NCBI GenBank assembly: GCA_021792255.1
Contig: JAJYUZ010000004.1
Location: 32,001-96,000 of the forward strand
Reading direction: 5' to 3'
DNA from: Thermoplasmata archaeon
GTDB lineage: Archaea > Thermoplasmatota > Thermoplasmata > Thermoplasmatales > GCA-001856825
DNA: 64,000 bases
Position numbers and translations under genes: made by a program. This document shows positions 7,721 through 54,600 of the stretch, one piece after another. The notes beneath the pieces were generated by a model. The model searched no databases and was not told where the DNA came from. It was given only the letters and a program-made list of their open reading frames with translations. Numbering within the stretch: position 1 is the stretch's first letter; each line of letters starts with the position of its first letter.

Positions 7721-7780
7721 CTCTTGTTTGACCAAGTTTGATAACAGAAATCTTTATCCATGCTATGGCCATTAAACGGC

Positions 7781-27572: not shown

Positions 27573-27634
27573 GTACCACAGTGTCATAGGAAAATTCGTG
27601 AATGAATTTAATAACATGTGAATCATATTATGCT

Positions 27635-28063: not shown

Positions 28064-29175
28064 GTCTATTTCAGTTTCCAAGAACTATATATTTTCAGCG
28101 CGACATTTTTGACAGTTTAGGGGACATATTACAGAAGGAAGGGATAAGAAGAGTACTTATTGTGAGTGATAAAATAATAATGGGATTTATTGGAAACAGG
28201 CTAGAAAAGACCCTAGCCCCAATCGAACGAGAACTTTTCGTCGATGTCACTCCTGAGCCGACGATAAGGCAGATTCAAAATGCCTTAACCGCTCTCAAAG
28301 GAAGACATTATGACGCAGTCCTTGCAATAGGAGGAGGAAGCGTCATTGACTTCTCCAAAGCCTTAGCCGTATTGATATCAAATCCAGGGGCCGATTTGAG
28401 TACTATAAGTCCATTCGAAGTCATTAATCTCAAGACTAAGCTAATCGCTATTCCGACAACTTCCGGAACAGGGAGCGATGTCTCATTCGGAGTTGTTCTG
28501 ACCGATGACGAAGGCAAACTGGCACTTGGCAACTACGCACTTGTTCCAGAAATAGACATCCTAGACTCCTCCCTAGCCCCTACAGACAAGAAGATTACGG
28601 CTGCGACCGGAATAGATGCATTTGTCCATTCCTTTGAAGCTATTGCATCAAATACGTCTACGGTGTTTACGGACGCACTTGCAGAGAGGGCAATCGAAAC
28701 GATTTTTCATAACCTAAAGAGAGCAATGGAAAACGAGGAAAATGCAAAGGATTTAATGCATATTTCTGCAACAATGGCCGGAATGGCTTTTTCAAATAGT
28801 GGGACAGCATCGGCCCATGCTCTAGGTCACAGTTTTGGAGCCACATTCCACATAACTCATGGAACTTCAGTTGGTCTGTTCCTTATTCCTTCCATACTTT
28901 TCAATTCACAGAATCAGGAGGCGAAGGAGAAATATTTGAGAGTATGCAGGATCCTAAATGTTAACGACATCGAAGGGCTTATCGAAGAGATAACGAAATT
29001 CTTTAAAGATGTGGGTCAGCCGTGTCGAGTAAGAGATCTAGGAATCGACAGACAGGTCTATGCATCAAAAATTGAGCAGCTCATCTCTCTTTCCATGAGG
29101 GACAGCGAGCTTGCGTTCAATCCAGTTCTAGCAGGAGAAGATGATCTCAGAAAGATTTTTACAGAAACCTACTGA
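28060..29175 (+). CDS. iron-containing alcohol dehydrogenase
   Basis: AIGGGSVIDFSK, IPTTSGTGS, GIDAFVHSFE, AHALGH, HGTSVG. Confidence 0.93.
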   Translation: MSLFQFPRTIYFQRDIFDSLGDILQKEGIRRVLIVSDKIIMGFIGNRLEKTLAPIERELFVDVTPEPTIRQIQNALTALKGRHYDAVLAIGGGSVIDFSKALAVLISNPGADLSTISPFEVINLKTKLIAIPTTSGTGSDVSFGVVLTDDEGKLALGNYALVPEIDILDSSLAPTDKKITAATGIDAFVHSFEAIASNTSTVFTDALAERAIETIFHNLKRAMENEENAKDLMHISATMAGMAFSNSGTASAHALGHSFGATFHITHGTSVGLFLIPSILFNSQNQEAKEKYLRVCRILNVNDIEGLIEEITKFFKDVGQPCRVRDLGIDRQVYASKIEQLISLSMRDSELAFNPVLAGEDDLRKIFTETY

Positions 29176-29179
29176 GTAT

Positions 29180-30055
29180 TTATGATACTATGAAATTGAC
29201 TCCCTTCTGCATCACATTAACCGTTATAGGCGACGTTCCCACCACTTCTCCATCCATTTCAACTAGGTTTCCCTTTTCAGTAAAACGGATCGATTTTACT
29301 TTACTTTCGAATGAAAAATTCTTCTCTATGTAACTTCCGTTCATCAGGTTCCTTAAGCGGAGTATAGTCGTAAGTCTGGACACTGGTTTCAGAATGTGAA
29401 CATCAAGAATTCCATCACTCAAGATGGAGTGAGGTGATGCCAGCATCCCGCCTCCGAAGTACTTTCCATTAGCAACGATAACTTCTATCGTCTCCAAGTC
29501 TTTCTGATCCCCATTTTCTATTCCGGGCTTGAATCTCTTAAGTTTTCGGACGGTGGAAAGAATTCCACGAACAAATGTATACCGACCTCCCTTGGGGTGC
29601 GAATTGACGTATCTCATCACTTCTGCTCCGAATCCTATCTCCAGAACGTTTATGAAGACTCTACTCTTGCCAGTCTCTTCAAAGGTGACGTTCGGTACAT
29701 CAATTCTTTCAACCTTATTTGCTTTCAACGTGCTTATCGACTCTTCCACGCTCCTGACTCCAATCGACTTTCCAAAATCAGAACCTGTTCCAAGAGGTAT
29801 CAATCCAACCTTGATCTCGGAACCTGCCAAACCATTGATCACCTCGTTTAGTGTCCCGTCTCCTCCGCAAGAAACTATGGCATCGTATCCCTTAAGGACG
29901 GCATTCCTCGCTATCTCAGTCGCTTGCAACGATCTCTGGGTAAATTCGACATCATATTCTGAGAAATTTTCTTGTATCAATTTTGCTATTGCTGGCCACT
30001 CCTTTTCTGCCTTCCCCTTCCCAGCGGCGGGGTTGACTATGAATAAAATGCTCAC
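29180..30055 (-). CDS. diacylglycerol kinase catalytic-domain lipid kinase (YegS/DgkB/sphingosine kinase family)
   Basis: IVNPAAGKG, GGDGTLNEVINGL, IPLGTGSDF, NGKYFGGG, DGEV. Confidence 0.93.
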   Translation of the reverse strand: MSILFIVNPAAGKGKAEKEWPAIAKLIQENFSEYDVEFTQRSLQATEIARNAVLKGYDAIVSCGGDGTLNEVINGLAGSEIKVGLIPLGTGSDFGKSIGVRSVEESISTLKANKVERIDVPNVTFEETGKSRVFINVLEIGFGAEVMRYVNSHPKGGRYTFVRGILSTVRKLKRFKPGIENGDQKDLETIEVIVANGKYFGGGMLASPHSILSDGILDVHILKPVSRLTTILRLRNLMNGSYIEKNFSFESKVKSIRFTEKGNLVEMDGEVVGTSPITVNVMQKGVNFIVS

Positions 30056-32982: not shown

Positions 32983-34520
32983 AAGGTTACGAGACATTCG
33001 CAGATGTCATAAACAGACTTGACCTGCTACCGATATTTGGGAACCCAGGAACGACCGAGCTTAACTCGCTTAAGGCAGTGGATGACTATGTACTAACGCA
33101 GTTTGATGGTCTAGCCGTGGGAATGGCCGATGGTCTCTCTCAATTCTCTTTTCAGCCGCATTTGGTGAACCTGCACACTATACTCGGACTCGGTAACTCG
33201 ATGGCGTACATATACACAGCGAGGATGAACTATTCTCCGGTTATAATAACCGCAGGTCAGCAGGATTTAAGACACATGTCAATGGAGCCGCTGTTATCAG
33301 GTGATCTCCTTGGCTTTATAGGAAATAATGTGAAATTTAAGTACGAGCTAAAGAGTGCATCGGAGATTCCTTCCGTTCTAAGGAGGGCAAAAGTCGAAGC
33401 ACTGACTCCACCAATCGGTCCAGTTTTCGTTTCCATTCCCATGAACGTAATGGATGAGGACTCGTCGTACAGACCACCAGAACCAACCAAAAGAAGTTAC
33501 GAAACGTCGAATGAAGACGCAGTGAATGCGGTCTCGAACCTCCTCAATGAGTCAAGAAATCCTGCGTTGGTATTTGGATGGGAAATAGATCTGTTCGGCG
33601 CGTTCGCAGAAGCTGAGAAAGTCGCTGAAAAATTGGGTTGCCCAGTCTACGGTGAACCGCTCGCTCATCGTTCACCATTTAATTCCACAAGCAAGATGTT
33701 TGGAGGCAACCTGCTTCCTGGGACCACACTAATAAATCTCAAACTGCTCCAGAACGACCTGGTCGTCTTCATAGGAGGAGATGTGACACTTTATCCCTAT
33801 CTCCCTTCCCCACTTCTCGAAGGGAAGAAGGTAGTCTTCGTTGGACTCAACATCAATCCGAAATTCGGTGACTTCTACAGAGCTAACGTGAAGTCATTTC
33901 TTGGTGAACTGGTCGGTAAGATAAGCAAGAAAGGCAATTTCTCGAGGCCAAGTGATTTTCAGATATCCACTAGGATTGCGAACGAAAAGGAAAAGATGGG
34001 TGTCACTTTCGTGATGAGCAGGGTAAAGAAATTGTTCTCGGACTACGTAATAGTCGATGAGGCGATTTCCTCCTCCACTATACTAAGAGATGTACTGGGT
34101 TATTCACCCGGAAGGTACTTCTTTTCCAAGAGTGGTCAACTAGGTTGGGGTTCTCCAGCGGCATCTGGAATTTCAATGAAGACAGAGAAGGTACTAGCTA
34201 TAGTTGGAGAGGGTTCATTCATGTATTCTCTTCAAATCCTCTGGACAGTCCAAAAGTACAACCTTCCTGTCAAATTCCTGATACTGAGAAATGGAGGCTA
34301 TTCCATTCTGAAAAGCTATTCGCTGAGCTATACGCCGGGCATGGAAAAGAAGGACTATTTGAGTTTCGACTTGCCAACTGAGAAATTTGCAGAATCGTTC
34401 AAAATTGAATCTATGGTTGCGGGAAAGGAACTCGACGAGCTAAAATGGTTGAGAGAAGGGAACGATTCAAAGCTCCTAGTGGTGGACGTCGACAGGACGA
34501 TTCCTAAACTGTTCCTATGA
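32979..34520 (+). CDS. ThDP-dependent 2-oxoacid decarboxylase (benzoylformate decarboxylase-like)
   Basis: FGNPGTTEL, VGMADG, NLHT..GLGN, GQQD, GEGSFMY...RNGGY ThDP motif. Confidence 0.88.
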   Translation: MKGYETFADVINRLDLLPIFGNPGTTELNSLKAVDDYVLTQFDGLAVGMADGLSQFSFQPHLVNLHTILGLGNSMAYIYTARMNYSPVIITAGQQDLRHMSMEPLLSGDLLGFIGNNVKFKYELKSASEIPSVLRRAKVEALTPPIGPVFVSIPMNVMDEDSSYRPPEPTKRSYETSNEDAVNAVSNLLNESRNPALVFGWEIDLFGAFAEAEKVAEKLGCPVYGEPLAHRSPFNSTSKMFGGNLLPGTTLINLKLLQNDLVVFIGGDVTLYPYLPSPLLEGKKVVFVGLNINPKFGDFYRANVKSFLGELVGKISKKGNFSRPSDFQISTRIANEKEKMGVTFVMSRVKKLFSDYVIVDEAISSSTILRDVLGYSPGRYFFSKSGQLGWGSPAASGISMKTEKVLAIVGEGSFMYSLQILWTVQKYNLPVKFLILRNGGYSILKSYSLSYTPGMEKKDYLSFDLPTEKFAESFKIESMVAGKELDELKWLREGNDSKLLVVDVDRTIPKLFL

Positions 34521-36260
34521 AGTCCAGTTTCTGATCTTCCTGTATTTAGTCATCAGGGAGTTCATCTCATCATCACTCGTTTCACTATCTTCCGGCTCGC
34601 CTTCTATCTTTCTTCTTACCATTTTCGGAAGGTAATCGTCTTCAGCCTTGAGCCCAAACTTCTCATTTAATCTCCTCTTCTCTTGAATAATATTACTTCC
34701 GATCCGCATCATTTCCTCGATCGTATAGTCAAATCCGGTGGAGAGATTCAGGGCTTCAACAACGTCATCTGGACTGATCTTTGCGTACGTACAAATGATA
34801 GCGGAGTTGTAAATTTGTCTATAGTTTTGAGCATTAGCCAAGGTTTGGACTCTCTCTTCTGTGTTTACGATCCATCTGTCTCCGCTCACTATTCCGATCT
34901 GACGATCATCAACTCCCATATCTACCTCAAATATTTCCGCTTGGAGGTGATCCGCCCCTCTCGAAGATGTTGCATAACCAATTCCCTGAAGCTTGAATGC
35001 CCTTGGGTCATGCATGGGTATCTCCATTTTCTTCACAGTGGCGATCTCATCCCTGGGAATTCCTCTTGAAAGTGCAAACCTTTCAAGACCTTTTTTGAGC
35101 GATTCCCCCGCACCTCTAGATTCCGCAATGTCCTCAATTAGTTGCCCGACTCTTTTGAATCCGTCGCCGAAATACCACTTTATCGATGAATCGGTTATCT
35201 TTCCTTCTTTTACAAAGTGATTTAGGGCTGAGATTATTACGCCGGCACTGATAGTATCCATTCCCTTATCGTTTAGCAGATCGTTCCATTCCAGTATGAG
35301 GTCGAAGTCCGTATTTCCAAGCAGGGGGCCGAAGCTTGCGACGGTTTCATATTCGGGACCATCTATCTTTCTGCTGTCTTTCGTTACAGTCCTCCCGCAT
35401 CCTATAACACAATTCGCACAGTGATAGCTCGTCACACTATACACGTCGTGAAATTTCATGGAACTCAAAGAATCATAATCAAAATTGTGATCGCTGAAAT
35501 AGTGGGCTGGGATGTCCCCCATTCCCTGGCCCATATCCATCCAGATCATACTCCCATTGCTCTTCAATCCCTGCGTAAGGGGAGATTCGATCAGATATTT
35601 GGACACTTTTCTAACAAGTTCAAAGTATTTCTTCCTGTCATGAATCGGGACCTGCAGATTTCCCTTTACTACAATCGCTTTAAGATTCTTCGAACCCATT
35701 ACAGCGCCTAATCCAGTCCTGCCAGCCGCTCTTCCTTCGTCATTCATTATTGACGAGAAAAGGACTCTGTTTTCACCAGCTCTACCGATTCCCATCACGC
35801 TATATTTTTTCTCTTTTGTGAGATCTTCTCTAAGAGCGTAGAAATCTTTTCCCCACAAATCCGGTCTCTTTTCAATTTTGACTAACTCGTCAATTTTGAT
35901 TACCTTTGGGGTGTCTGCTCTGCCTTTAATGATTAGACCATCGTAACCCGCCTTTTTGAGTTCATTCCCAAAAAACCCTCCCGAGTTAGCTTCAGCCAAA
36001 AATCCAGTTTGCGGACTCCTAGAGACTATCTCGTGTCGCCCGCTGTTTGGGAAAGGAGTGCCGGTGAGTGGACCAGTCGTCAAGATTAGTAGATTGTCAG
36101 GAGAGAATGGCTCCTGAGAACCGCCAATTTTATTATAAAGTCTTTGTCCGATACCGACTCCGCCCATCCAGTTTCTCCAATCCTCTTCTGACAGAGACTC
36201 GGTCCAGACATCATCTGAGGATAGGTTGACAAATAGAAACCTGTTCCAGTTTCCTTCCAT
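34515..36260 (-). CDS. aldehyde:ferredoxin oxidoreductase family (W/Mo-pterin)
   Basis: GPLTGT, ANSGG, LKKAGYDG, AAGRTGLGAVMGSKNLKAI, CxxCxxxC, GPEYE, GMDTIS, HDPR, RGADH. Confidence 0.93.
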   Translation of the reverse strand: MEGNWNRFLFVNLSSDDVWTESLSEEDWRNWMGGVGIGQRLYNKIGGSQEPFSPDNLLILTTGPLTGTPFPNSGRHEIVSRSPQTGFLAEANSGGFFGNELKKAGYDGLIIKGRADTPKVIKIDELVKIEKRPDLWGKDFYALREDLTKEKKYSVMGIGRAGENRVLFSSIMNDEGRAAGRTGLGAVMGSKNLKAIVVKGNLQVPIHDRKKYFELVRKVSKYLIESPLTQGLKSNGSMIWMDMGQGMGDIPAHYFSDHNFDYDSLSSMKFHDVYSVTSYHCANCVIGCGRTVTKDSRKIDGPEYETVASFGPLLGNTDFDLILEWNDLLNDKGMDTISAGVIISALNHFVKEGKITDSSIKWYFGDGFKRVGQLIEDIAESRGAGESLKKGLERFALSRGIPRDEIATVKKMEIPMHDPRAFKLQGIGYATSSRGADHLQAEIFEVDMGVDDRQIGIVSGDRWIVNTEERVQTLANAQNYRQIYNSAIICTYAKISPDDVVEALNLSTGFDYTIEEMMRIGSNIIQEKRRLNEKFGLKAEDDYLPKMVRRKIEGEPEDSETSDDEMNSLMTKYRKIRNWTS

Positions 36261-36393: not shown

Positions 36394-37680
36394 ATGCAAC
36401 AGCAGCCAGAAAATCTGGCGCCAAGCAACAGAAGATGGCTTGTTCTTGTTGGGTACATGCTAATATCCATGTCGTCTCAGATCATCTGGCTAAATTTTGC
36501 CGGGATCGTTTCACCTCAAATGGAAAACATTTTCAATGTGGGTCTAGGACCAATCAGTCTCATGTCAGGTCTCTGGCCACTAGTGTTCATTCCTATTTCG
36601 ATTCCTACAGGCCTCATGGTCGACAGGTGGGGATTCAAGAAAGTCGTTTCCATAGGTGGAGGAATATTGGTAGTGTTTTCGTGGCTGAGGTTACTTAGCG
36701 GTGGGAGTTTTGAGCTGTTGTTCGTGTTTCAAAGCTTGGCTTCGGTGGGACAGCCATTCGTATATAATGGAATTTCTAAGCTCGCAGGAAACTGGTTCCC
36801 GGAGGGAGAACAAGCTCTTGCAAACGGAATTGCTACCATGGGTCAGATAATTGGTATGATCATTGCGCTTGTGCTTGTCCCCATAATGGTTCCTAGTGCC
36901 AGCTTTGCTCTCCTGCAAACCAACATGGTCGTGGTATCCCTCATCGTCACAATATCGGTTGTATTCTTCCTCGTCTTTTCAAAAGAAAATCCGGGCACTA
37001 TGGTTGTCAGTCCCGTGGTTCAGGAGAAGGTCAGTTTTCAGATTAGACATCTACTCAAGATGAAGAACATGATCCTTCTTATGATTCTCTTCTTGATCGG
37101 GGTAGGAATATTCAGTGGTCTGATACAGTGGGTGGAGGCAATTCTGTTTTCAAAAGGAATCTCTTCCCTTTACGGCGGCCTCATCGGAGCAGGAATGCTA
37201 ATTAGTGGTATCTTTGGGATGGTGATCATACCTCTACTCGCCGATAAGTATTCGAAACTGAAACAGGTGGTGATAGTGAATGCTTTACTGGTTGCAGTAC
37301 TTCTGTTCCTATTCAGTCTCAGGGTAAATCTACTGTACTACGCAATAATAGGAATCATTCTTGGATTCACTCTGCTCTCTCTGGCTCCGGTCGTCCTTCA
37401 GATATCTCTAGAGACTGCTGGAAAGGAACGAGCAGGGACTGCTGCGAGTGTCATCTGGCTGACATCTCAGGTGGGAGCGTTATTCTTCATCCTAATCATG
37501 CCTGCTCTCAACACCTTCCAGCTGAGCATGAACATCCTGGTCTCTGATCAGTGGTTCATAGCACTCGTATTCTCCGGAATCACGATGCTGGTGGCGGTGT
37601 TACTAGGTGCCATGTTAAATGACACCAGAAAAGGAAAGAGCATCAGACAAGGATCAGAGTCCCCGAAATCTAACTCTTAA
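36394..37680 (+). CDS. MFS transporter, FLVCR/SLC49-like
   Basis: About 12 TM segments; RRWLVL...IWLNFA, VDRWG, GQPF, WFPEGEQALA, LADKY. Confidence 0.85.
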   Translation: MQQQPENLAPSNRRWLVLVGYMLISMSSQIIWLNFAGIVSPQMENIFNVGLGPISLMSGLWPLVFIPISIPTGLMVDRWGFKKVVSIGGGILVVFSWLRLLSGGSFELLFVFQSLASVGQPFVYNGISKLAGNWFPEGEQALANGIATMGQIIGMIIALVLVPIMVPSASFALLQTNMVVVSLIVTISVVFFLVFSKENPGTMVVSPVVQEKVSFQIRHLLKMKNMILLMILFLIGVGIFSGLIQWVEAILFSKGISSLYGGLIGAGMLISGIFGMVIIPLLADKYSKLKQVVIVNALLVAVLLFLFSLRVNLLYYAIIGIILGFTLLSLAPVVLQISLETAGKERAGTAASVIWLTSQVGALFFILIMPALNTFQLSMNILVSDQWFIALVFSGITMLVAVLLGAMLNDTRKGKSIRQGSESPKSNS

Positions 37681-37697: not shown

Positions 37698-39242
37698 TCA
37701 AGTCGAGTTGCTTTGTCTCAAACTCTTTCTGTTGTTTCGGTAGTAGTCGATGAACTGATGGAATTCTCTTTCGTATAAAGAATTCTCTTCCATGTCTGGT
37801 AGATGATCCACAAAAGGCGCTCCCAGGTCAGAAAGATCGGAAAACTTCAATTTATCTAATCCCACAGCCGAGATCATAGCTGCGCCATTCACGGTCGAGA
37901 ATCTCTGATCACTGACCACCCTTATCTTTCTACCGAGCACGTTCGCAAATATCGTCGCCCTAAGGGAAGACAATGCACCTCCGCCGCTCATGTACAATTC
38001 TTCTATCCTCTTTCCAGTGAATTTTTCGACCGTGTTCAGGAGCCACTTAGAGTTAAGCGCAACTCCTTCCATTGTCGACCTAACGACGTCGGCCTTGTTG
38101 TTTTCCAAGGAAAGATTATAGAAACCTCCTCTGACATATGGATCTTCGATCGGGGCCCTTTCTCCGAACAACCAAGGAAGAAACATAAGGCCCCTAGAAC
38201 CAGGCTCTGACTTAGAGACCAGGTCATCGATGACGGAATACTTATCTTCCCCTGTAATGTTTAAGAGATCTGAGACGAAGTCCATGCTATTACACGCACT
38301 TTCTTGCTCTGCTGCAACGAAGTATTTACCAGTAATTCCGCTTGGAAGGGATGCAACATTATGGAATATGTCAGTTTTTTTGAAAGATACGTGAGAGGTT
38401 ATCCACGATGAGGTACCCAAATAGATGAGAGATTTGTAATCCTCAATGCACCCTGCTCCTATCAATGAACAGGCGACGTCTCCGCAACCCGAAACCACTT
38501 TCACACCTTTCACCCCGAGCTTGGATTCCACCTCTTCCTTCAACGATCCAACCAAATCAGTAGGCTTGATCACTTGAGGAAGTTTTTCCTTTAAAATCCC
38601 AGACATCCTCAGCAATCCGTCGTCGTAGGTCACGTTCCACGGATCTCTGTTGTCCGTCGACCAAAGCAGGGTCAGATTGTCCCAGGAGGCCTTGAAATTT
38701 CCGGTCAGTTTTGCAGCAATGTAATCTTTTGGTTCCAAGAACTTGTACGTCTTTTCATAGATGTCGGGGAGGTTGTGCTTTATGTATAATATATGGGCGA
38801 GAGAATCCTTTCCCGAATGGGCTGGTGCGCCTCCCGTTTTTCTCAACCATTTGATCAGCTTGTCGAGCCTGTATCCAGAAATCGAGGGAAAGCCAGATGT
38901 CAGTTTGCTGATTTCATCGCTACCTCGTGTATCCATCCAAATGATTGCATTGCTGATTGCATCACCGTTTCTGTCCACCGGGACTGTTCCGGACCACTGT
39001 CCCGTCAACCCAATTCCCTTTATCTCTAAGCCGTCAGATTCAGCGACTATTTCTTCCATTCCATCCATCACAGAATTATACCACTCTGCCGGGTTCTGCT
39101 CAGCCTCTCCTCCATTTCCTATTTTAAGGCCGTACTTTCTGGTTACTCTCCCCCTAGTCACCCTTTCCTCGTCGACGAGGGAGATCTTCACAGAAGATGT
39201 TCCGAGATCAATTCCTATAAAAGCATCTTTCATTTTCAACAC
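37698..39242 (-). CDS. FGGY-family kinase (xylulokinase-like)
   Basis: IGIDLGTSSVK, EQNPAEW, TGQWSG, WMDTR, YLGTS, PWLFGERAP, EGVA, SGGGA. Confidence 0.92.
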   Translation of the reverse strand: MLKMKDAFIGIDLGTSSVKISLVDEERVTRGRVTRKYGLKIGNGGEAEQNPAEWYNSVMDGMEEIVAESDGLEIKGIGLTGQWSGTVPVDRNGDAISNAIIWMDTRGSDEISKLTSGFPSISGYRLDKLIKWLRKTGGAPAHSGKDSLAHILYIKHNLPDIYEKTYKFLEPKDYIAAKLTGNFKASWDNLTLLWSTDNRDPWNVTYDDGLLRMSGILKEKLPQVIKPTDLVGSLKEEVESKLGVKGVKVVSGCGDVACSLIGAGCIEDYKSLIYLGTSSWITSHVSFKKTDIFHNVASLPSGITGKYFVAAEQESACNSMDFVSDLLNITGEDKYSVIDDLVSKSEPGSRGLMFLPWLFGERAPIEDPYVRGGFYNLSLENNKADVVRSTMEGVALNSKWLLNTVEKFTGKRIEELYMSGGGALSSLRATIFANVLGRKIRVVSDQRFSTVNGAAMISAVGLDKLKFSDLSDLGAPFVDHLPDMEENSLYEREFHQFIDYYRNNRKSLRQSNST

Positions 39243-39250: not shown

Positions 39251-40645
39251 CTAATGGCTATAAAGCCATTCAACGACACTCTTCAAGAAGACGTCAGTAG
39301 ATTCCTTCGGCAACACAGAAGCCATCCCATAGATCGGTGCCATCGATGAGGCCTTGACGCTCCCTTTCTTCACCGAGTCCACTGCACCGCTAAGGTCTAT
39401 GACAAATTTCTCCTTAACATCTTCTAAGGTATGCCTGTGAGTAAGAGCAATATGGAATCCTGCAGGATTTGAGAGTCCGTTCAGCATCCATCCCCTCTTC
39501 GACATAGCCTCCCAGACCAGATAAGGGTCGAATTCCCCAGATGATATTGCTATTACCCAGAGCGGATTTCCAATGTACTTGAGTCCTGGAATCTTTTCAA
39601 TAGATTTCTTGATGTAGTCCCCTGCGTCAAGTATCTTCTTTGCTTCTTGAGTGTAACCATTCCTACCCATCAACAGCATGGCGGCCCAAGCAGCCACGAT
39701 AGGGTATCCCGGTCTGCTTCCCAAAAGAGTGGGGGTGAAATATATGCCTCCTTGCCAGGAAGCTGTAGCGTAGATCTGATTTTGGAAATAATCGCCATTC
39801 CTGTACAACACTACAGACGTTCCTTTCGGGGCGTAACCGTACTTATGAGTATCCATCGAAATCGAGGTCACACCGCTGACGGAGAAATCGAAGTCTGGAA
39901 AATCGTAACCAGCATCCCTCACAAACGGATCCATAAATCCTCCCAGACAGGCGTCGACGTGCATCCCTATCTTCTTATCTTCTGCGACTTCCGCCAGTTC
40001 CTCAATCGGATCGAATGTACCGAACGGGAAATTGGGCATAGATCCTACTATTGCGACAGTGTTTCCACTCATCAGTTCCTTTACCATGGCAACGTCTGCT
40101 CTATAATTCTCATCCAGTCCGACTATGACTGGCTTGATAGAGAAATACTCGCACGCTTTCAGAAAGGATGGATGAGCGGTTGATGGCAGAACTATCTCAG
40201 GTTCCGTTATTCCTCTCTTTTTCCTGAAGAAATCCCTGTAGGTCTTCATTGCAAGCAGTATGCTCTCCGTCCCGCCAGATGAAACGGCACCTCTCACACC
40301 ATCGTCACCGTGCATCAGCGATGACGACATGCTGACTATTTCTCTCTCGAATTTCGGAATACTGGGCCAAACATCTGGGTGTAGAGCATTTGTCTGTGAT
40401 ACAAGATGGTATAGTTTCTCGTAGAAAGAAAGTAACGGTTCATCACCATAATAAACTGCCCCTGAAACCTTTCCCTCTTTCCAGGATTGGCTTTCCTTCT
40501 TTGCAAAGCCTGATAAGGTATTTAGCAAGAAATCCTCCCCTAAGCCCTTATCCGGCATCCTGACAAAATTTGATTCGGGTGAGTCGTATGGTTTTAGATC
40601 TTTCTGCAATTCATTTAACACGGAACCAAAATCTATTCCGTTCAT
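39251..40645 (-). CDS. sphingosine-1-phosphate lyase-like PLP enzyme (group II decarboxylase fold)
   Basis: GKVSGAVY, NALHPDVWP, SGGTESILLA, HVDACLGGF, SISMDTHKYGYAPKGTSVVLYR, WQGGIYFTPTLLGSRPG, GWMLNGL. Confidence 0.88.
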   Translation of the reverse strand: MNGIDFGSVLNELQKDLKPYDSPESNFVRMPDKGLGEDFLLNTLSGFAKKESQSWKEGKVSGAVYYGDEPLLSFYEKLYHLVSQTNALHPDVWPSIPKFEREIVSMSSSLMHGDDGVRGAVSSGGTESILLAMKTYRDFFRKKRGITEPEIVLPSTAHPSFLKACEYFSIKPVIVGLDENYRADVAMVKELMSGNTVAIVGSMPNFPFGTFDPIEELAEVAEDKKIGMHVDACLGGFMDPFVRDAGYDFPDFDFSVSGVTSISMDTHKYGYAPKGTSVVLYRNGDYFQNQIYATASWQGGIYFTPTLLGSRPGYPIVAAWAAMLLMGRNGYTQEAKKILDAGDYIKKSIEKIPGLKYIGNPLWVIAISSGEFDPYLVWEAMSKRGWMLNGLSNPAGFHIALTHRHTLEDVKEKFVIDLSGAVDSVKKGSVKASSMAPIYGMASVLPKESTDVFLKSVVEWLYSH

Positions 40646-40774: not shown

Positions 40775-42199
40775 ATGAAGAACAAAGTGCTATTTATTGC
40801 GCTCCTAATTTCTATCGTGATACTACTTCCTGCCGTAAGTGGCTCTATTTCCCAGCCGGGAGAAAGAACTCCAATAAAACACGTAATAAACATATATTTT
40901 GAAAATCATACCTTTGACAACTTCTTTGGAACTTACCCCAGAAATCCCTCTTCTTCTGGACAATCCATCATCGCTAACATTTCTAAACCTCTCAACCTTC
41001 TAAACAATTCGTCTCTATTGAACAGCTTGACACCAGTATCAGCGGGAACGTTCAGCACTCCCAATCCAGTCGAAGGTTATACTGCCTATCACTTGGATTG
41101 GAACCACGGTGCAATGAATGGTTTTACAACTGGAAGCGGTCCCTCATCTATGACATATTATACCTCGGCTCAATTGGGCCCAATTTGGGATCTGTCAGAA
41201 GAATATGGAATGGGCGATAGGTACTTCGCATCCACTATTTCTGAAAGCGCTCCAAACACTCTTTATTACCTTGCGGGATTCTCGCCGTTAATAAATGACT
41301 ATGGGCCTCCACCGTCGATTCCAATCAATGAAACTATTTTTGGTGAACTGAACCAGTATAATATCCCATGGGGCGTATACGTAAGCGGAAACTACAAGAG
41401 TTTCGATATGTCCAGCATGATACAGGGAATAGCGTCTTATTCCAGCGATATCAACAGCTGGAGTACTTTCTTACAGCAGCTGGGAAACGGAACACTTCCA
41501 TCAGTAAGTTACGTGTTTTCTCAAGGTGGGAACGGGTACGACACAGGTGCCCCAGGGAGTCTGCTAAAGGGTGAGTTGTGGCTCCTTGCATTGGTAAATG
41601 CAATTGAGGCTAGTCCGATCTGGGACAACACGGTCGTGTTCATAACTTGGGATGATCCGGGAGGATACTACGATCAGCTCTCTCCTCCAGTCGTGGCCGG
41701 ACAACAACTTGGTATGAGACTCCCATTTATCGTGGTTTCACCATTTGCGAAGGAAAACTACATTTCGAACACTGTCCTGACTCACTCATCTATTCTTGCG
41801 TTCATTGACTATAATTGGGGAATTCCGGCCTTGAACAGTTTTGTATCCGGGGTGAACATTCCGCTCGACTTCTTTGATTTCAACGTATCAAGGCCAGCCA
41901 TGACTTTTAATTTTGGAAACACCATCTCGGTCCCAACGAACCTTGATTTCAACCTTACTTCGAGTGATTCGTCATCAAACCTATCCGCCACATTTCCGCT
42001 GAGCCCTCAAATGCCATTCAGTTCTTTGCACTATGCAGCACACGGCGAGATCAATTACACTCTGTCTTCGACAGGGGCTGGTATCCTGGTAAAGAATGAC
42101 GTGACGCTGTCTCCCTTCTACGCTTCGCCATACTTGCTTCTGGTACTGATCCTAGCGTGCGTAGCAGTGGTTGAATATCTGCCAAGGAGGAAGGTGTAA
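40775..42199 (+). CDS. exported phosphoesterase/phospholipase C family protein (AcpA/PlcH type) with C-terminal membrane anchor
   Basis: Signal peptide, IKHVINIYFENHTFDNFFG, MNGF, TWDDPGGYYD, GMRLPFIVVSPFAK, HSSILAFI..NWG. Confidence 0.88.
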   Translation: MKNKVLFIALLISIVILLPAVSGSISQPGERTPIKHVINIYFENHTFDNFFGTYPRNPSSSGQSIIANISKPLNLLNNSSLLNSLTPVSAGTFSTPNPVEGYTAYHLDWNHGAMNGFTTGSGPSSMTYYTSAQLGPIWDLSEEYGMGDRYFASTISESAPNTLYYLAGFSPLINDYGPPPSIPINETIFGELNQYNIPWGVYVSGNYKSFDMSSMIQGIASYSSDINSWSTFLQQLGNGTLPSVSYVFSQGGNGYDTGAPGSLLKGELWLLALVNAIEASPIWDNTVVFITWDDPGGYYDQLSPPVVAGQQLGMRLPFIVVSPFAKENYISNTVLTHSSILAFIDYNWGIPALNSFVSGVNIPLDFFDFNVSRPAMTFNFGNTISVPTNLDFNLTSSDSSSNLSATFPLSPQMPFSSLHYAAHGEINYTLSSTGAGILVKNDVTLSPFYASPYLLLVLILACVAVVEYLPRRKV

Positions 42200-42200
42200 A

Positions 42201-42770
42201 ATGACGACAGCAAGCGAAAAGAAAGGTGCAAAAACACTCTCGGGCATTATTCGGGGAGCTATTCCAGGCTCTTTGCTCACAACGGGCATTTTGCTTTCCT
42301 ATGGATACGTCAGCGGAATTATCTACAGTATAGGAGATACGAGACAACTGATACCAGTTTTTACCGGTATAATCATCGGTGCCATCGTTTTTTCTCTGAT
42401 CGGTTTTATCCTAAGACCAACACAAATAAACATTATTTCACTGACCATCTTTTCTTTGGTTCTCTTGATTGCAGCCTATGTAATCATATCTCTCAACTCG
42501 CTCGTCCTAAATAGCACCAATATGATGATTGTGGCATTTCTTATGGGTTCGCCAGCAATGGCAGTATCACAACTCGTAGGCGACAGTTCTGCTCACTATT
42601 CTTTCATAAAGAGGGTGATCTTCGGATCCGTTCAGGCTGTTCTCGTAATAGTGTTCATCTTTGTCTTTTCACTGGAGTATGAAATGCAAGGGCAGGTGAA
42701 TCTCTATTCCGGTCCGCTACTCTTCCTGGCTCTCTCACTCGCGTATCTAATAGTGTTAAAAACCGTGTGA
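42201..42770 (+). CDS. multi-pass membrane protein, likely co-transcribed with the phosphoesterase
   Basis: About 6 hydrophobic segments; ATG 1 nt after the upstream stop, with AGGTG upstream. Confidence 0.7.
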   Translation: MTTASEKKGAKTLSGIIRGAIPGSLLTTGILLSYGYVSGIIYSIGDTRQLIPVFTGIIIGAIVFSLIGFILRPTQINIISLTIFSLVLLIAAYVIISLNSLVLNSTNMMIVAFLMGSPAMAVSQLVGDSSAHYSFIKRVIFGSVQAVLVIVFIFVFSLEYEMQGQVNLYSGPLLFLALSLAYLIVLKTV

Positions 42771-42880: not shown

Positions 42881-43399
42881 ATGAAAATGATCGAATCTCC
42901 CTGGGTAGTTTTTTTGGACTTGGACGGCACGCTCTGGGATCATCTAGACATTACAGCTGCTAGTCCACCTTTCACAAGAATTTCCGAATCAATAATTTCC
43001 GATTCTCTTGGAGTAAGAATCTCATTACTACCAGGAGCAGTCGATTTCATAAAGTGGGTACGTTCAAGTGGAGGAATTATCTCTACATGTAGCTGGAATG
43101 AATACGACAAAGCTATCGGTGCCCTTGAGGCATACGGCATAGTTCATTTGTTCGATTATCAGAAGGTTTCGACTAATCCAAAAAAATATCTCTTGATGGA
43201 GGAAGTGATAAGTAAGCTTGTCCAGAAAGGGGTCTCTGTCAGGATGGACAGACTCTTCTATTTAGACGATAGGGATATTCACATTAGTGACGTGAAGGTC
43301 AGATTTCCGGAACTGACTTTCTTTCTGATGTGGAAGAACGGGACGAACTACGAAAGCGTAAAGAGTACGATCCTGTCCAAGATCAAAGGAACGCAGTGA
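42881..43399 (+). CDS. magnesium-dependent phosphatase-1 (HAD subfamily IIIC)
   Basis: FLDLDGTLWDH, CSWN, PKK, YLDDR. Confidence 0.88.
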   Translation: MKMIESPWVVFLDLDGTLWDHLDITAASPPFTRISESIISDSLGVRISLLPGAVDFIKWVRSSGGIISTCSWNEYDKAIGALEAYGIVHLFDYQKVSTNPKKYLLMEEVISKLVQKGVSVRMDRLFYLDDRDIHISDVKVRFPELTFFLMWKNGTNYESVKSTILSKIKGTQ

Positions 43400-43511
43400 T
43401 TCTGAGCGGATTGGGCAAGATATCTGATTTTCGATCACGAGAACTCTCTAGATCAGGAACAAACATAAGAGTTACCCCAAAAATTTAATATTGCAAGTTA
43501 ATGAAAAAAAT

Positions 43512-43934
43512 ATGGCCGAGAAACTCCTTTTCCCCTCCGAAGAATGGATCAAGGATTACTGTTCAGTGTTGTCTCAGTCTCAAGAATATAACCGACTGGG
43601 ACAGGGGTGGAAAGACTCAGTCCAGTTCAAGATAACGGACTTTGCTGACAAGAACTTAGGATTAGATTACGAGTCGTTTGTCCTTGACCTAAGGGATGGT
43701 AGGTGTGAAAGATATCATCTCATCAGGGAGGATGTTGAGAGCGCACCGTTCGTTCTGTACTCGTCATACTCTGACTGGAAACGAATCCTAGAAGGAAAAG
43801 TAAATCCTACCCAAGCTATGCTGAGCGGCGTATTGAAGGTAAAGGGAGATATGGTAACTTTGCTAAAATATGCGGCAGCTGCGACTGAAATGGTAAAGGC
43901 AGCAGAAAAAATAGAAACCAGATTCGAAATCTAA
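43512..43934 (+). CDS. SCP2 sterol/lipid-binding domain protein (copy 2)
   Basis: FPSEEW...WKRILEGKVNPTQAMLSGVLKVKGD; clear paralog of 27635-28063. Confidence 0.9.
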   Translation: MAEKLLFPSEEWIKDYCSVLSQSQEYNRLGQGWKDSVQFKITDFADKNLGLDYESFVLDLRDGRCERYHLIREDVESAPFVLYSSYSDWKRILEGKVNPTQAMLSGVLKVKGDMVTLLKYAAAATEMVKAAEKIETRFEI

Positions 43935-44163: not shown

Positions 44164-45162
44164 TTGATTAAGATGGCCAACAGGTCGGTAGTTATATTCG
44201 CATTCCTTGTTATTTTTATAATGTTGATATCATCTTCTTTCATTATTCCAAGCAGTGCCTACAACAGTGAGGCTCAGCACAGTAATAAGACTGCTATGGT
44301 TTGGATGGGATTGGAAATTACTGGGGAAAACATAACATCGGACCTTTTATCGATTAGCGCACACAAGGCGGAATTGACGGGGGTCTCCTATGAACACTAC
44401 ATCCTTAGCTCTCAAGGTGAACTTGAACCCATCTTGATGATTACTAACGTAACACACTCCATAAAGTCGCTAGGTCTTGAGACTTTTCCAATGATAATAA
44501 GCGCAAATCTGATTGATTTAGAATATCTTCTAAGCCATCCAACAAATTTCATTTCAAGCGCTGTGTCACAGGCAATTACGTTCGGATACACAGGTTATAA
44601 CATTGACTTTGAACCTTCGCAAGAGGCTAACAGCTCGGTCGCACTGCAGTATTCAATTTTTTTGGATACATTTGCCAACGCTCTCCATGAAAAGGGGTTT
44701 GAATTGACGGTCGATATCGCTTCTTGGAATTCCTTCTGGAATTTTGGTGAGTTGAATAACACTTCTGCAGACATACTCTACGATATGGATACCTACGCCT
44801 CTCCTTTATTCAATTTTGGTTACGCATTAGAGAATGCTGTGACACAAATTTCCCTTCACAAGCTCGGAGTTGGTTTAATCACTACGAACGTAAACAATGG
44901 ATCTAATCTTACGAGCGTCTCTGTCCATTCAAGATTTCAATCTCTTGAATCTGACAATGTTTCAAATGTCGCTGTATGGGATATGCCTCTAAACAGCTAT
45001 TGGTGGTCGTATCTTTCACAGTTTCTTGGTGTTAAACACAGCATCATTCCCTTCCCTCTTCTGTACCTTCTTTTTCTAGCGGTTCCCGCGATCATGGCGA
45101 TTGCAGTGTATCTTGGTGTCAAGTCAAATAAACGAAAACGGTTAAACCCTAAAAATATCTAG
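44164..45162 (+). CDS. exported GH18-like glycoside hydrolase with C-terminal membrane anchor
   Basis: Signal peptide, YTGYNIDFEP (GH18 DxE), FANALH, LTVDIA, MDTY, AVW. Confidence 0.72.
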   Translation: MIKMANRSVVIFAFLVIFIMLISSSFIIPSSAYNSEAQHSNKTAMVWMGLEITGENITSDLLSISAHKAELTGVSYEHYILSSQGELEPILMITNVTHSIKSLGLETFPMIISANLIDLEYLLSHPTNFISSAVSQAITFGYTGYNIDFEPSQEANSSVALQYSIFLDTFANALHEKGFELTVDIASWNSFWNFGELNNTSADILYDMDTYASPLFNFGYALENAVTQISLHKLGVGLITTNVNNGSNLTSVSVHSRFQSLESDNVSNVAVWDMPLNSYWWSYLSQFLGVKHSIIPFPLLYLLFLAVPAIMAIAVYLGVKSNKRKRLNPKNI

Positions 45163-45506: not shown

Positions 45507-46361
45507 TCAGACGACCCCCTCTGGCTGGACTACCTGGTACTTGACGTTATCAAGTATGAAGTAGCTGAATATCCAAAATGAATACATCAAAGCGATGCTC
45601 TGATGTGGTAATGAAGATGCAGCAAACTCACTACCTATTCCAACTCGAAGAATAGAAACATTAGATGATAAATAACTCCTATCTTCCAGATATGATAAGA
45701 ATGGCGTAAATGCTAATTTAAAGCTCATTGAATCAGATGTATTTATCAATGGAACAAACACATAACTGGGAAAGACACCAGATGCGCTATTGCCTATATA
45801 TAGATCCCAAGTCACCTTTTCAGTATCATTATTAATTTGTATGGGGATCACGACAGATACTCCACTAAATGTAGCATTCTGACCTGAATATACCTCTCCC
45901 GACAAATCATCAACCAACATAATTTCAACTTCATATTGGGGAGTGGAATTTTTCCCTAGAAACATATCATACGCTACATCATACCTGACCTGTTGACTTA
46001 CCTGTTTTATACTGAAAGAAACGAAAGAAGAGAAGTTCCCTTTATATATCTCATTCAATGACAAAGGTAAATTATATGTAAAATGAACCGAAGGATAGCC
46101 AAAAATCCCCACTCCATTCCCTGCGTTGTATAAATCAGTTGAAAGATGAATTGAAGAGTTGTTATAAAGATTCATTACCGTACCACCTCCTCCTTTGGTA
46201 AAATCCCACAAATTCGGGCTGACATATCCATAGCTCGAATTATAGTAAGGATGAGGATTTGACAGATTACCAACAAGAGTTGCAAACGGCCGTGTTCCAG
46301 AAGTCGAGTTCGTGACTGGGATTGTGTTATTATTTCCTGAAGGACTTCTTGGGAACTCCAT
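45507..46361 (-). CDS. GH12-like endoglucanase, exported; hydrophobic leader continues in frame to about 46434 without a canonical start
   Basis: PNLWD, FGYP, YDVAYDMFL, YEVEIML, GIGSE (two GH12-like Glu motifs); visibly AT-rich. Confidence 0.65.
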   Translation of the reverse strand: MEFPRSPSGNNNTIPVTNSTSGTRPFATLVGNLSNPHPYYNSSYGYVSPNLWDFTKGGGGTVMNLYNNSSIHLSTDLYNAGNGVGIFGYPSVHFTYNLPLSLNEIYKGNFSSFVSFSIKQVSQQVRYDVAYDMFLGKNSTPQYEVEIMLVDDLSGEVYSGQNATFSGVSVVIPIQINNDTEKVTWDLYIGNSASGVFPSYVFVPLINTSDSMSFKLAFTPFLSYLEDRSYLSSNVSILRVGIGSEFAASSLPHQSIALMYSFWIFSYFILDNVKYQVVQPEGVV

Positions 46362-46552
46362 GTTGACGGCAAAAGCCGATGCTATGACGATTATCGAAAT
46401 TACGGTGACTGTGACCAGTGTTATAGCCTTTAATTTCTCACCCTGTGCAGATTAATGACTGCGGGATTTGATACTGTTTCGGTTTAAAACTTTAGTCGTT
46501 TTATGAACCTCCTTTCTATATAAGATAGGGTCTCATAACGACCTGAACTCGA

Positions 46553-46627
46553 TGGGACCGCCGAGATTTGAACTCGGGTCACCAACACCCCAAGCTGGTA
46601 GGATGGTCCAATCTACCCTACGGTCCC
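46553..46627 (-). tRNA. tRNA-Pro (GGG), intronless, CCA not encoded
   Basis: GGGACCG/CGGTCCC acceptor stem, anticodon arm CCAGC-TTGGGGT-GTTGG, T arm CCGAG-TTCAAAT-CTCGG; directly downstream of rpoN. Confidence 0.96.
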
Positions 46628-51611: not shown

Positions 51612-54600
51612 ATGATAATAAGAGGTAATAATGAGTACAATCTGGAACAATATCTGGATCCGTTGGTCCTGGAATGGTTCACATCCAAGTACAACAACGC
51701 AACAACGGCTCAGAGAATTGGGATTCCTCTTATTCATCAAAGAAAGAACGTCCTGATTTCTTCTCCGACTGGAACAGGAAAGACTCTTTCTGGCTTTTTG
51801 GTAATCATAAATGAGTTGTTCCTTCTCGCCAAACAGAACAAACTTGAAGACAAGATATATTGTGCATATGTCTCGCCATTGAAGGCACTTGCAAACGATA
51901 TTCACAGGAACCTTGAAGTCCCGCTGGAGGAAATCAGGGAACTGGCAGAGGTCAAGGGAATTCACATTCCAAAGATCAGAGTGGGAGTAAGGTCTGGAGA
52001 CACTAGCCAATATGTCAGGCAAAAGATGAATAAAACGCCGCCGCACATCTTCATCACGACTCCAGAGTCACTGGCCCTCGCTCTCTTCTCACCAAAATTC
52101 AAAGAGAAATTCAGAGGGGTGGAATTCCTCATTGTCGACGAGATCCACGATCTTGCCTCAAATAAGAGAGGAGAACTACTCAGCCTGATCATCGAATTTC
52201 TTCAGCACGGCAGGGGTACAATCACCAGAATAGGTTTATCCGCAACGACTGAACCCATCGATGAATTAGCAAAATTCCTGGTCGGAAACGTCGACAACGT
52301 GGATGTGCACATTGTCGAAGCAGAATCGAACAAGAACCTCGATATGAAAGTGATATGCCCGGTCTCTGACCTGTTTTCGGCTCCCCAGGAACAGATAAAT
52401 GAGAGGACCTATGACATAATCGAGTCGATGGTCAAAGAACACACCACGACTCTCGTGTTCACAAACACAAGAAGTGGTGCGGAAAGGGTGTCATCAAAGC
52501 TCATAGAGAGAGGTATTATGGACCTCGAAGCACACCATTCGAGTCTGTCCAAGGAGTCGAGATTCAACGTCGAGGAGAGATTGAAGAAGGGAGAACTCAA
52601 GTGCGCGGTTTCTTCCACTTCTCTTGAGCTTGGTATAGACATCGGGAGCATAGATTTGGTAGTCCAGGTCGGCTCCCCAAAGGGCATCGCAAAGGGGCTT
52701 CAGAGAGTTGGCAGATCGGGGCACTCCGTCTTCGCCACAGCGAAAGGACGTATCATTCCAATGGACATCGACGACCTTGTCGAATCACTCGTCCTAGTGA
52801 AAGCTGCTAAGGCTAAGAGGCTAGATCGATTGACGATACCCAGGAACTCTCTCGACGTCCTGAGCCAGTTCATAGCAGGAATCTCACTGGAAAAGAAGTG
52901 GAGAGATGAGGAAGCTCTCCAGCTCGTGAGGAAGACATACTGCTACAAAGATCTCAAAGAAGAGGATTTCTTGAACGTCCTCAACTATCTCTCGGGAGGC
53001 TTCGAGGAAGGGAACGTTTACTCCAAAATCTGGTGGGACAGGAAGGAACACACCTTTGGAAGGAAAAAGAGCACCAGACTGATATATTTCACGAACGCCG
53101 GCACCATCCCAGAAGAAGCAGACTACGATGCATACTCAGTAGACAACAGGCACCTCGGTGCACTGTCGGAAAAGTTCGTCGAAAAACTGCATAGGGGAGA
53201 CATATTCGTTCTTGGTGCAAGGACGTACGAGTTCCTAAGAATGAGAGGGAACAAGGTGTTCATCAAGGATGCATCTGGTAGAAAACCGACAGTCCCATCC
53301 TGGGTAGGAGAAATGCTTCCTAGGACGTTTGACTTATCAATAGAGATCGGAAAATTCCGGAAGGCACTGGAAGAGAGAATGAAAAATGGGATTGCAGAAG
53401 ACTTCCTCAAAAATGAGTACGCAGCCGACGAGAACAGTGTGAGAAGCGTCATTTCCTACATCACCAACCAGATGGATTATGGAGTGCCTACAAACGACAG
53501 TCTTCTGATAGAGGGCTACATAGACAAGGCGGGCCAATTCTCGATCATATTCCACTTCGCTTTCGGCAGAAGGGTCAACGATGCACTAAGTAGAATTATA
53601 GCATTCAACATCTCAAAGAACTTCTCAGTCAACTCAAGAATATCCCTGACCGACGATGGTTTCATGCTCACTTTCAACAGGCGAGTGGAAGTAGCCAAGA
53701 TTAATGAATTGCTACCAACGATAACGATTGGAGGATCGCTCAGAAGTGCGGTCAAATCGACCGAACTTTTCAAGCAGAGATTTAGACACTGCGCCACTCG
53801 CTCATTTATGGTACTAAGAAGATACAGAGGCAGAGAAGTATCGGTTGCGCGACAACAGCTCAGGAGCGAGAGAGTTCTCGACATACTTTTCTCTATGGAG
53901 AATTTCCCGATAATCGAAGAAACGTTCAGGGAGATTGAGGGGATCGTTATGGACCTTGATAATTCGGGGAAAATAATGACTTCCATCAGAAATGGGGAGA
54001 TAAAGATATTCTCAAGGGACTACACGAGATATCCGAGTCCATTTGGTTTCGGAATCATATCGACCGGGATCACTGACGTAGTTCTCATGGAGGACAAGAG
54101 TGCAATCATCAGGGAACTGCAGGAAGCACTTCTTGCCAAGATGGGCTTGGAGAGCAGTTCAGAAGTAGACATAGAATCACTAATGAATTATCAGGAATCA
54201 AAACAGCTCTTGGACTCGGACGGAGGACTACTTGGTTTCCTCGGCAATGCAGGGTTTGCCGATCTCTACTCGACGGTGTCGTTCTCGCCTCTTAAGAAGG
54301 TTGACGACCCTGAAGAATACTACAGCAAGCTTTCCGAACACCTATCCACTGGAGAAATAGTTCCGGTGTTCACCGGAAAGACGGTGTATACACTGAAAGA
54401 GAACGTTCCCTACCTGGCATCAGTGTTCATACAGGAGAGCGACAGCAAAATCAATTTCAAGGACGGCGAGAGCACAAACGCGATTGCGAAGAACAACAAC
54501 CTGGATCCAGAGTCGACTCTGTTAATTCTCAGAAAGATGGAAAGGGCGTACAAAGCATTCATCCTGAGACACGGAACGAGGGTAAAATGGTACAACAGAA

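Follow-up and report, generated by a model that had tools for sequence, protein, structure and literature searches.

How might an archaeon come to use a soluble enzyme that resembles sphingosine-1-phosphate (S1P) lyase, and which kinase would supply its phosphorylated substrate? S1P lyase (SPL; EC 4.1.2.27) is a textbook eukaryotic enzyme. The question is raised by a gene pair in a 64,000-nucleotide stretch of DNA, the window, from a Thermoplasmata archaeon (GenBank assembly GCA_021792255.1, contig JAJYUZ010000004.1, positions 32,001 to 96,000 of the forward strand). In window coordinates the two genes are:

39251..40645, minus strand: SPL-type lyase dependent on pyridoxal phosphate (PLP), of the sphingoid-base-1-phosphate lyase family; 464 residues, ATG start, soluble; PF00282 at 62 bits.
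37698..39242, minus strand: FGGY-family kinase of the 'QWSG/TDNRD' subfamily; 514 residues, GTG start; PF00370 at 128.7 bits and PF02782 at 80.4 bits.

Both proteins belong to the families named, the lyase keeps the active-site residues of a bacterial SPL and the two genes are linked in many genomes. Together they probably form a kinase-then-lyase operon that degrades a 2-amino-1,3-diol, of which a sphingoid base with a long chain, obtained from the surroundings, is the most probable. We infer what the kinase phosphorylates, how long the chain of that substrate is and what the accessory genes do.

That 39251-40645 is a real gene follows from the range and number of its homologues, which run from 98% down to about 40% identity, with 7076 at E<=1e-10 among the 8000 candidates scored. 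The window is archaeal in gene content (an unsplit RNA polymerase B subunit, split A′/A″, LonB, a proteasome subunit and FttA) and the nearest relatives of lyase and kinase alike are in Thermoplasmatales metagenome-assembled genomes (MAGs). Public names for the lyase are 'aspartate aminotransferase family protein' and 'glutamate/tyrosine decarboxylase-like', and at JGI 'sphinganine-1-phosphate aldolase'. The initial annotation, made without database searches, had assigned it to the SPL branch, rather than to archaeal MfnA or glutamate decarboxylase (GAD), on five motifs. A residue search finds all of them: GKVSGAVY at residues 58-65, NALHPDVWP at 86-94, DTHKYGYAPKG at 265-275, WQGGIYFTPTLLGSRPG at 297-313 and GWMLNGL at 385-391. 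The accompanying statement that there is no N-terminal transmembrane helix, as in soluble bacterial SPLs, is borne out by a Kyte-Doolittle scan, in which the top 19-residue mean is 1.13 over the full length and 0.19 within residues 1-100, whereas two neighbours, an MFS transporter and a PLC-like phosphoesterase, have segments above 1.6. Such a helix marks the eukaryotic SPLs, SGPL1 and Dpl1, and the window lyase lacks it. Since the lyase of Symbiobacterium thermophilum (StSPL) lacks it too, the helix does not define the prokaryotic SPL branch.

When the lyase was scored against all PDB structures, the solved proteins that bear on its identity were:

StSPL (3mad): 483 bits, E 8e-144, over residues 11-462.
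Human SGPL1: 364 bits.
Yeast Dpl1: 345 bits.
Burkholderia lyase: 331 bits.
Legionella lyase: 245 bits.
Archaeal MfnA: 123 bits.
Glutamate decarboxylases: at most 78 bits.

The PF00282 match, and the alignment of H267-K268-Y269-G270 with H310-K311 of StSPL, place the protein among the fold-type I, group-II decarboxylases. Archaeal members of this superfamily are usually MfnA, which is also, by name, the top NCBIfam match, so the lyase might conceivably be a group-II amino-acid decarboxylase (an MfnA tyrosine/aspartate decarboxylase or GAD) that has been misread. However, its score with the MfnA model TIGR03812 is 231.4 bits against an equivalog cut-off of 299.4, and with the GAD model TIGR01788 114.1 bits against 380.4. 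The solved MfnA falls far behind StSPL, and the SPL-specific residues that bind the substrate phosphate (Y65, N86, H89 and K274) are kept. Almost no room is left for a decarboxylase.

Those four belong to a set of 14 StSPL residues that contact cofactor or substrate (Table 3 of PMC6148460). The 14 make up the PLP phosphate cup and the PLP sandwich, provide the Schiff-base lysine and the substrate-entry tyrosine, and form the substrate-phosphate site. Mapping by motif register, from the alignment with the PDB structure, shows every one of them to be identical in the window lyase: A103 corresponds to A63, Y105 to Y65, N126 to N86, H129 to H89, G168 to G125, T169 to T126, H201 to H158, D274 to D231, C276 to C233, H310 to H267, K311 to K268 (the PLP lysine), K317 to K274, S353 to S310 and Y482 to Y439. 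The set is kept in all 18 archaeal rows of the lyase alignment, with a single Cys-to-Ile change at the C276 position as the sole exception. Both trees described below put the window lyase inside the StSPL-type clade (MfnA itself is not among the tree sequences). With these scores and residues its assignment to the SPL branch, predicted from sequence, is well supported, as the initial annotation had it.

StSPL is therefore the system with which to compare it. The two share a clade, a length class, the lack of a transmembrane helix and the 14 residues, at roughly 50-55% identity (PDB 3MAD/3MAU for StSPL). The window lyase differs in being archaeal and in starting about 40 residues later, so that most of the proline-rich flexible N-terminal segment described for StSPL (PMC3148216) is missing. 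StSPL is reported to cleave S1P, a C18 substrate, in vitro; its natural function is stated to be unknown by its authors, who guessed at catabolism of environmental sphingolipids (both PMC3148216). The Burkholderia and Legionella SPLs are likewise homologous soluble bacterial lyases; they are discussed as acting on host sphingolipids in PMC5234717 and PMC6148460. Both are farther from the window lyase than human SGPL1 is.

What then phosphorylates the substrate? The TAG of the lyase gene ends at 39251 and the GTG of the kinase gene is at 39242, with the 8 bases ACAGGGTA between them, just as the initial annotation had counted. (The kinase has an alternative start at an in-frame ATG three codons downstream of the GTG.) The coupling claimed there from this spacing is strongly supported by conservation. 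One genome per GTDB species was scanned with an alignment of archaeal relatives of the lyase, the best 80 of 589 confirmed relatives were taken as loci, and these were searched by tblastn with the proteins of the window neighbourhood. A same-strand FGGY gene adjoins the lyase in 62 of the 80 loci, three of these pairs being partial or broken (L021, L022, L025), and the pairing extends over archaea and at least eight bacterial phyla.

The linkage follows the lyase tree. A maximum-likelihood tree of 80 rows (the window and 79 loci, L021 being dropped for an internal stop) splits the lyases in two. One clade, of 67 rows, is supported at 100 by the Shimodaira-Hasegawa-like approximate likelihood-ratio test (SH-aLRT) and holds every FGGY-linked gene; counted by locus, 62 of 67 StSPL-type loci have the kinase alongside, against none of 13 in the other clade. 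Five in-clade loci lack it, one of which, L071, stops 182 nt past the lyase, and the near-identical L069 has the kinase. The order SPL then FGGY occurs in 19 loci: 15 of the 16 in-clade archaeal loci, a Symbiobacterium MAG, a Clostridiales genome, L069 and L078. The reverse order occurs in 43, from Planctomycetota, Chloroflexota, Actinomycetota, Pseudomonadota, Myxococcota, Acidobacteriota and Bacteroidota. The Symbiobacterium MAG (L033, labelled S. thermophilum) bears directly on StSPL. Its lyase matches the crystallised enzyme at 677 bits, is the closest relative of StSPL among the loci and is followed by an FGGY gene in the same order as in the window. No mention of a kinase neighbour of StSPL was found in the available portions of the literature searched.

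The kinase has both domains of the FGGY family, and its 'GCGDVAC' aligns with 'IAGDQQA' of GlpK and 'GGGDNAA' of XylB, the aspartate of this G-D motif being, we presume, the catalytic base. Among 8000 candidates scored, 5258 proteins are related to it at E<=1e-20, and Vulcanisaeta moutnovskia 768-28 has a kinase 48% identical to it. Its public names are 'xylulokinase' and 'FGGY-family carbohydrate kinase', and if these were taken at face value, the adjacency would be meaningless: an ordinary xylulokinase would lie beside a lyase whose substrate comes from elsewhere, or needs no dedicated kinase. This is very unlikely. The XylB model TIGR01312 gives 271.1 bits against an equivalog cut-off of 380.25, identity is 24% to E. 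coli XylB and 20% to GlpK, and the best PDB match reaches only 137 bits. In the window kinase, motifs of its own subfamily stand in for the substrate-loop residues of XylB and GlpK. Adjacency holds over two domains of life, two gene orders and two FGGY subfamilies, and Pfam scans of the window open reading frames (ORFs) and the recurrent neighbours (most single neighbours being unscanned) named no xylose isomerase or pentose-pathway enzyme.

The two subfamilies found next to the lyase are told apart by motifs in an alignment of the kinases (made without four of the 62, L004, L021, L022 and L025, in which the best segment is under 400 residues or has a stop inside). The major one, to which the window kinase belongs, has 'QWSG', an inserted 'TDNRD', 'SSW..HV' and 'EQE'. 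The second lacks these motifs (L014, L020, L038, L046, L055, L070 and L079), is 26-32% identical to the window kinase and is found in a Chloroflexota/Acidobacteriota subclade of lyases and also in the Dehalococcoidia locus L020, which is placed apart from it. This points to a partner kinase that was either recruited independently or has diverged strongly.

A second kinase in the window has also to be considered, for the initial annotation had left open whether it or the FGGY kinase supplies the substrate:

29180..30055, minus strand: DAGK/YegS-family lipid kinase; YegS/BmrU model at 137 bits against a cut-off of 118.65.

Eukaryotic sphingosine kinases belong to the DAGK family (and are described solely as such in the available part of PMC6148460), and this gene exceeds the lipid-kinase cut-off, so it could in principle be the sphingosine-kinase equivalent that feeds the lyase. 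However, it lies about 9 kb from the lyase gene, beyond five unrelated genes, and a homologue is found within 10 kb of the lyase in only one of the 80 loci, the syntenic relative L010. We give this kinase very little chance of being the partner; of the two candidates, the FGGY half of the proposal stands. The YegS-type gene has neighbours of its own: a second SCP2 gene at 27602-28063 overlaps the start of an Fe-alcohol dehydrogenase gene at 28060-29175, and this pair adjoins the YegS-type kinase and an FAD-linked oxidase, an arrangement also present in L010. The region 27602-29175 may be a second lipid- or aldehyde-handling unit.

How would the FGGY kinase and the lyase act together? The kinase, in place of a eukaryotic sphingosine kinase, would use ATP to put a phosphate on the C1 hydroxyl of the amino-diol. 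The SPL-type enzyme would then bind the amine to PLP at Lys268, with the phosphate held by Y65, N86, H89 and K274, and a retro-aldol cut of the C2-C3 bond would release phosphoethanolamine and an aldehyde. The aldehyde would be oxidised, in this genome possibly by a nearby aldehyde:ferredoxin oxidoreductase (AOR), and in relatives by an aldehyde dehydrogenase (ALDH) or an alcohol dehydrogenase, joined in some planctomycetes by an acyl-CoA ligase. An MFS transporter and an SCP2 protein would see to uptake and carriage of a hydrophobic substrate, and a phosphatase of the MDP-1 type may remove the phosphate from phosphoethanolamine. A two-step catabolic route is the simplest account of the locus because the pair is held across two domains and aldehyde-oxidising genes recur beside it.

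The scheme has two known counterparts. The eukaryotic route runs from a DAGK-family kinase (SPHK/Lcb4) through SGPL1/Dpl1 to fatty aldehyde dehydrogenase and acyl-CoA synthetase. The proposed route resembles it in having a kinase, a homologous PLP lyase (345-364 bits), aldehyde oxidation and, in some loci, CoA ligation. It differs in that the FGGY kinase has an actin-like ATPase fold, of a superfamily unrelated to DAGK, that the lyase is soluble and not anchored in the endoplasmic reticulum, that the genes are clustered in an operon, and that the eukaryotic lyases fall with the prokaryotic clade that lacks an FGGY neighbour. The second counterpart is among sugars, where FGGY kinases are paired with aldolases (fuculokinase with fuculose-1-phosphate aldolase, rhamnulokinase with rhamnulose-1-phosphate aldolase). 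There too an FGGY kinase phosphorylates C1 and a lyase then splits the chain next to the activated carbon to give an aldehyde. In those pairs, however, cleavage is metal-dependent at a C2 ketone, while in the window it would be PLP-dependent at a C2 amine.

Around the pair, the window has further genes that may belong to the same process:

34515..36260, minus strand: AOR, a candidate aldehyde sink; matches AFOR_N and AFOR_C.
36394..37680, plus strand: MFS transporter, a candidate substrate carrier; PF07690 at 118 bits.
40775..42199, plus strand: secreted, C-terminally anchored phosphoesterase of the PLC/acid-phosphatase family; PF04185 at 193 bits.
42171..42770, plus strand: five-segment membrane protein; no Pfam match; conserved beside the PLC-like gene in 5-6 loci.
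42881..43399, plus strand: HAD phosphatase, MDP-1 type; TIGR01685 at 95.5 bits against a cut-off of 53.75.
43491..43934, plus strand: SCP2 (sterol/lipid-carrier) domain protein; PF02036 at 51 bits.

How often these genes recur was seen in the tblastn search of the 80 loci; further recurrent neighbours came from clustering of ORFs up to 7 kb from the lyase, the clusters being scanned with Pfam and NCBIfam. MFS homologues lie within 4 kb of the lyase in 16 loci (15 archaeal and one from Clostridiales). The MDP-1 phosphatase, a candidate for acting on phosphoethanolamine or on the substrate phosphate, is present in eight, all archaeal, and comes directly after the FGGY gene in L004, L005, L006, L008 and L009. 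SCP2 is present in six, again all archaeal, and in the Nitrosopumilales locus L009 its gene directly precedes that of the lyase. The PLC-like gene, which is transcribed divergently from the lyase gene and encodes hydrophobic segments at both termini, is adjacent in six, all from Thermoplasmatota. As to the membrane protein beside it, inspection by eye found no His-rich ceramidase-type motif, and the leads from an Atlas search were discarded as chance-level (scores at most 0.83, TM-scores at most 0.53).

Enzymes for the aldehyde are more varied. ALDH genes occur in 12 loci, at a median of about 2 kb from the pair, and are of three subfamilies: BADH/ABALDH-like in archaea, ALDH3/MdlD-like in Phycisphaerales and Pirellulales, and an MMSDH-like type checked in Thermoflexus L019 only (L024 and L060 were not separately scanned). 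Fe- or Zn-alcohol dehydrogenases are found in four archaeal loci (L004, L005, L006, L009) and acyl-CoA ligases in five from Planctomycetaceae. The AOR gene of the window lies between the MFS gene and genes for thiamine-pyrophosphate enzymes, a position empty in the close relatives L002, L003 and L010. These have an ALDH gene beside SCP2, where the window has none, and the AOR may possibly be a functional replacement for it, as a single case. At 44164-45162, where the three relatives have ALDH after SCP2, the window has a gene for a 332-residue protein, hydrophobic at both ends and with no Pfam or NCBIfam match.

Is the substrate long or short? The same chemistry would serve for a 2-amino-1,3-diol or amino-polyol that is short and soluble in water, for example serinol, threoninol or a sugar alcohol bearing an amine, with phosphoethanolamine and a small aldehyde as products. 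We regard this as rather unlikely, yet as a serious rival, and several features that weigh against a sphingoid base are points in its favour. FGGY kinases characteristically use sugars and polyols, the nearest models to the window kinase are those of xylulokinase (XylB) and gluconokinase, and we know of no FGGY kinase that acts on a lipid. MFS importers, Fe-alcohol dehydrogenases (lactaldehyde-, sulfoacetaldehyde- or choline-like) and BADH/ABALDH-like ALDHs are at least equally typical of small polar solutes and their aldehydes, and L004 and L005 have a Zn-alcohol dehydrogenase resembling threonine dehydrogenase. A class-III aminotransferase gene near the lyase in three bacterial loci, in two of them with a class-II aldolase, looks more sugar-like than lipid-like. 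Its setting differs among the three: in L015 and L021 (Phycisphaerales, Pirellulales) FGGY, SPL and ALDH genes are followed by the aminotransferase and an aldolase of the fuculose-phosphate type, while the actinobacterial L030, which has no FGGY neighbour, has the aminotransferase alone, about 3 kb downstream. These lineages may have a variant of the pathway, or a substrate that resembles a sugar.

Other points weigh against the sphingoid-base operon more generally. Neither the window nor the loci yielded a ceramidase. AOR recurs in one locus of the 80 (L005, 8 kb from the lyase), and the accessory genes are kept only in subsets of 6 to 16 loci. Pairwise distances of lyases and kinases are correlated (Mantel r = 0.67, a value reached by none of 999 permutations), which speaks for the linkage, although shared species phylogeny accounts for part of it. 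There are no SPL-FGGY fusions among the 62 adjacent pairs. One public protein, P0241 (831 residues), has the form of a Rosetta-stone fusion of the two; as about 70 C-terminal residues of the kinase and about 55 N-terminal residues of the lyase (about 125 in total) are missing at its junction and it is a single sequence, it was not counted, and it may be an artefact of assembly or annotation, or an in-frame deletion fusion. The activities of the operon enzymes are, besides, predictions from their sequences.

A long chain is nevertheless favoured because StSPL, a member of the same clade, cleaves C18 S1P, because the substrate-entry tyrosine (Y482 in StSPL) is invariant in all 67 in-clade rows, and because SCP2 and acyl-CoA ligase genes recur beside the pair. 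A hydrophobic access tunnel is reported for StSPL (PMC10243590 and PMC3148216).

If the substrate is a long-chain base, it might be made by the organism itself, with the pair serving turnover of endogenous sphingolipid-like lipids and not scavenging. Nothing speaks directly for this. Pfam scans of the 64 kb window named no gene of the serine-palmitoyltransferase type, the class I/II aminotransferase near the lyase in L009 resembles alanine and aspartate aminotransferases and not an oxoamine synthase, and the neighbouring transporter and secreted hydrolases suggest uptake. Endogenous turnover is thus hardly likely, and a sphingoid base from the surroundings is preferred.

Where did the archaeal lyases come from? 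The initial annotation had called the window lyase horizontally acquired, a reading that holds up only in part. The first tree unites the archaeal FGGY-linked lyases (SH-aLRT 93). A second tree, of 53 rows, combined 41 of the 80 loci with nine eukaryotic SPLs and used E. coli GadB as root; there the archaeal group has SH-aLRT 99 and, except for L078, is sister to the bacterial FGGY-linked clade (92), while the eukaryotic SPLs join the prokaryotic clade without FGGY neighbours (90). L078 is basal, beside GadB. Rooting with GadB was rejected as untrustworthy because its branch is very long (about 10) and attaches to the long-branched L078, and the unrooted groupings alone were used. Single lyases from Thermoproteota and Nitrososphaerota nest among those of Thermoplasmatota, and the Thermoprotei locus L008 and the Nitrosopumilales locus L009 share the SPL-FGGY-HAD-MFS block with Thermoplasmatota, so that it seems to travel as a whole. 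The patchy archaeal distribution makes transfer between domains plausible. However, there is no sign of a recent event: GC and third-position GC (GC3) of the lyase and kinase genes are within one standard deviation of the window genes (z<1). With a supported archaeal clade, a conserved archaeal neighbourhood and ordinary GC, any such transfer of the lyase is old, and it could have run in either direction.

The second lyase clade (L061-L068, L072, L073 and L075-L077) has hosts in Promethearchaeota (Asgard), Bathyarchaeota, Natronomonas, Bacteroidota and some Deltaproteobacteria, among others. Compared with StSPL, three phosphate-site positions differ, A103 being replaced by Leu, Phe or Tyr, H129 by Asn or Ser and S353 by Thr or Gly, and Y482 is changed in 7 of the 13. 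In Chitinophagales the lyases of this clade are flanked by genes for an M23 peptidase and a LysE exporter. Here also belongs P0258 (Polyangiaceae, 1035 residues), in which an SPL-like lyase is fused to an amidase-signature domain; because it is placed in the clade without FGGY neighbours it says nothing about the clade of the window lyase, and it was dropped as evidence for that.

Elsewhere in the window, a GH12-like gene (45507-46361, minus strand) has an unusually low GC of 0.38 (z = -2.7; GC3 0.34) and adjoins the only tRNA gene of the window, for tRNA-Pro(GGG) (46553-46627, minus strand); a segment acquired more recently may have its edge here, at 45507-46627. An Lhr-type helicase of 1698 residues (51612-56708) has Pfam domains at residues 31-812 only, leaving about 880 C-terminal residues without a match. 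An ORF with a DUF772 transposase domain (7760-8449, 229 residues) is followed by two, 9055-9981 and 9978-10466, without a family match.

In the full-text literature searched, which leaves most subscription journals outside it, neither an archaeal SPL nor a link between SPL and FGGY kinases was found, and none of the papers searched describes a prokaryotic kinase that supplies the substrate of an SPL. It is quite possible, though we stop short of calling it probable, that the QWSG/TDNRD FGGY kinases are the missing prokaryotic sphingoid-base kinases and form, with StSPL-type lyases, a widespread and laterally mobile module for degradation or detoxification, present in Thermoplasmatota, other archaea and many bacterial phyla and accompanied by a transporter, an SCP2 carrier, aldehyde oxidation and a phosphatase. 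The conserved operon provides a concrete and cheaply testable candidate kinase, at present annotated as 'xylulokinase'. If the proposal is true, thermostable soluble kinase and lyase pairs would be at hand for biocatalysis or for depletion of S1P, applications of the latter kind having already been explored with StSPL (PMC3148216). Thousands of annotations would need correction, and the FGGY family would gain a lipid or amino-alcohol class of substrates. There would be a new, non-DAGK route to long-chain-base phosphorylation, and this would be the first sphingolipid-catabolic pathway in Archaea, whose members would then take part in the turnover of sphingoid bases.

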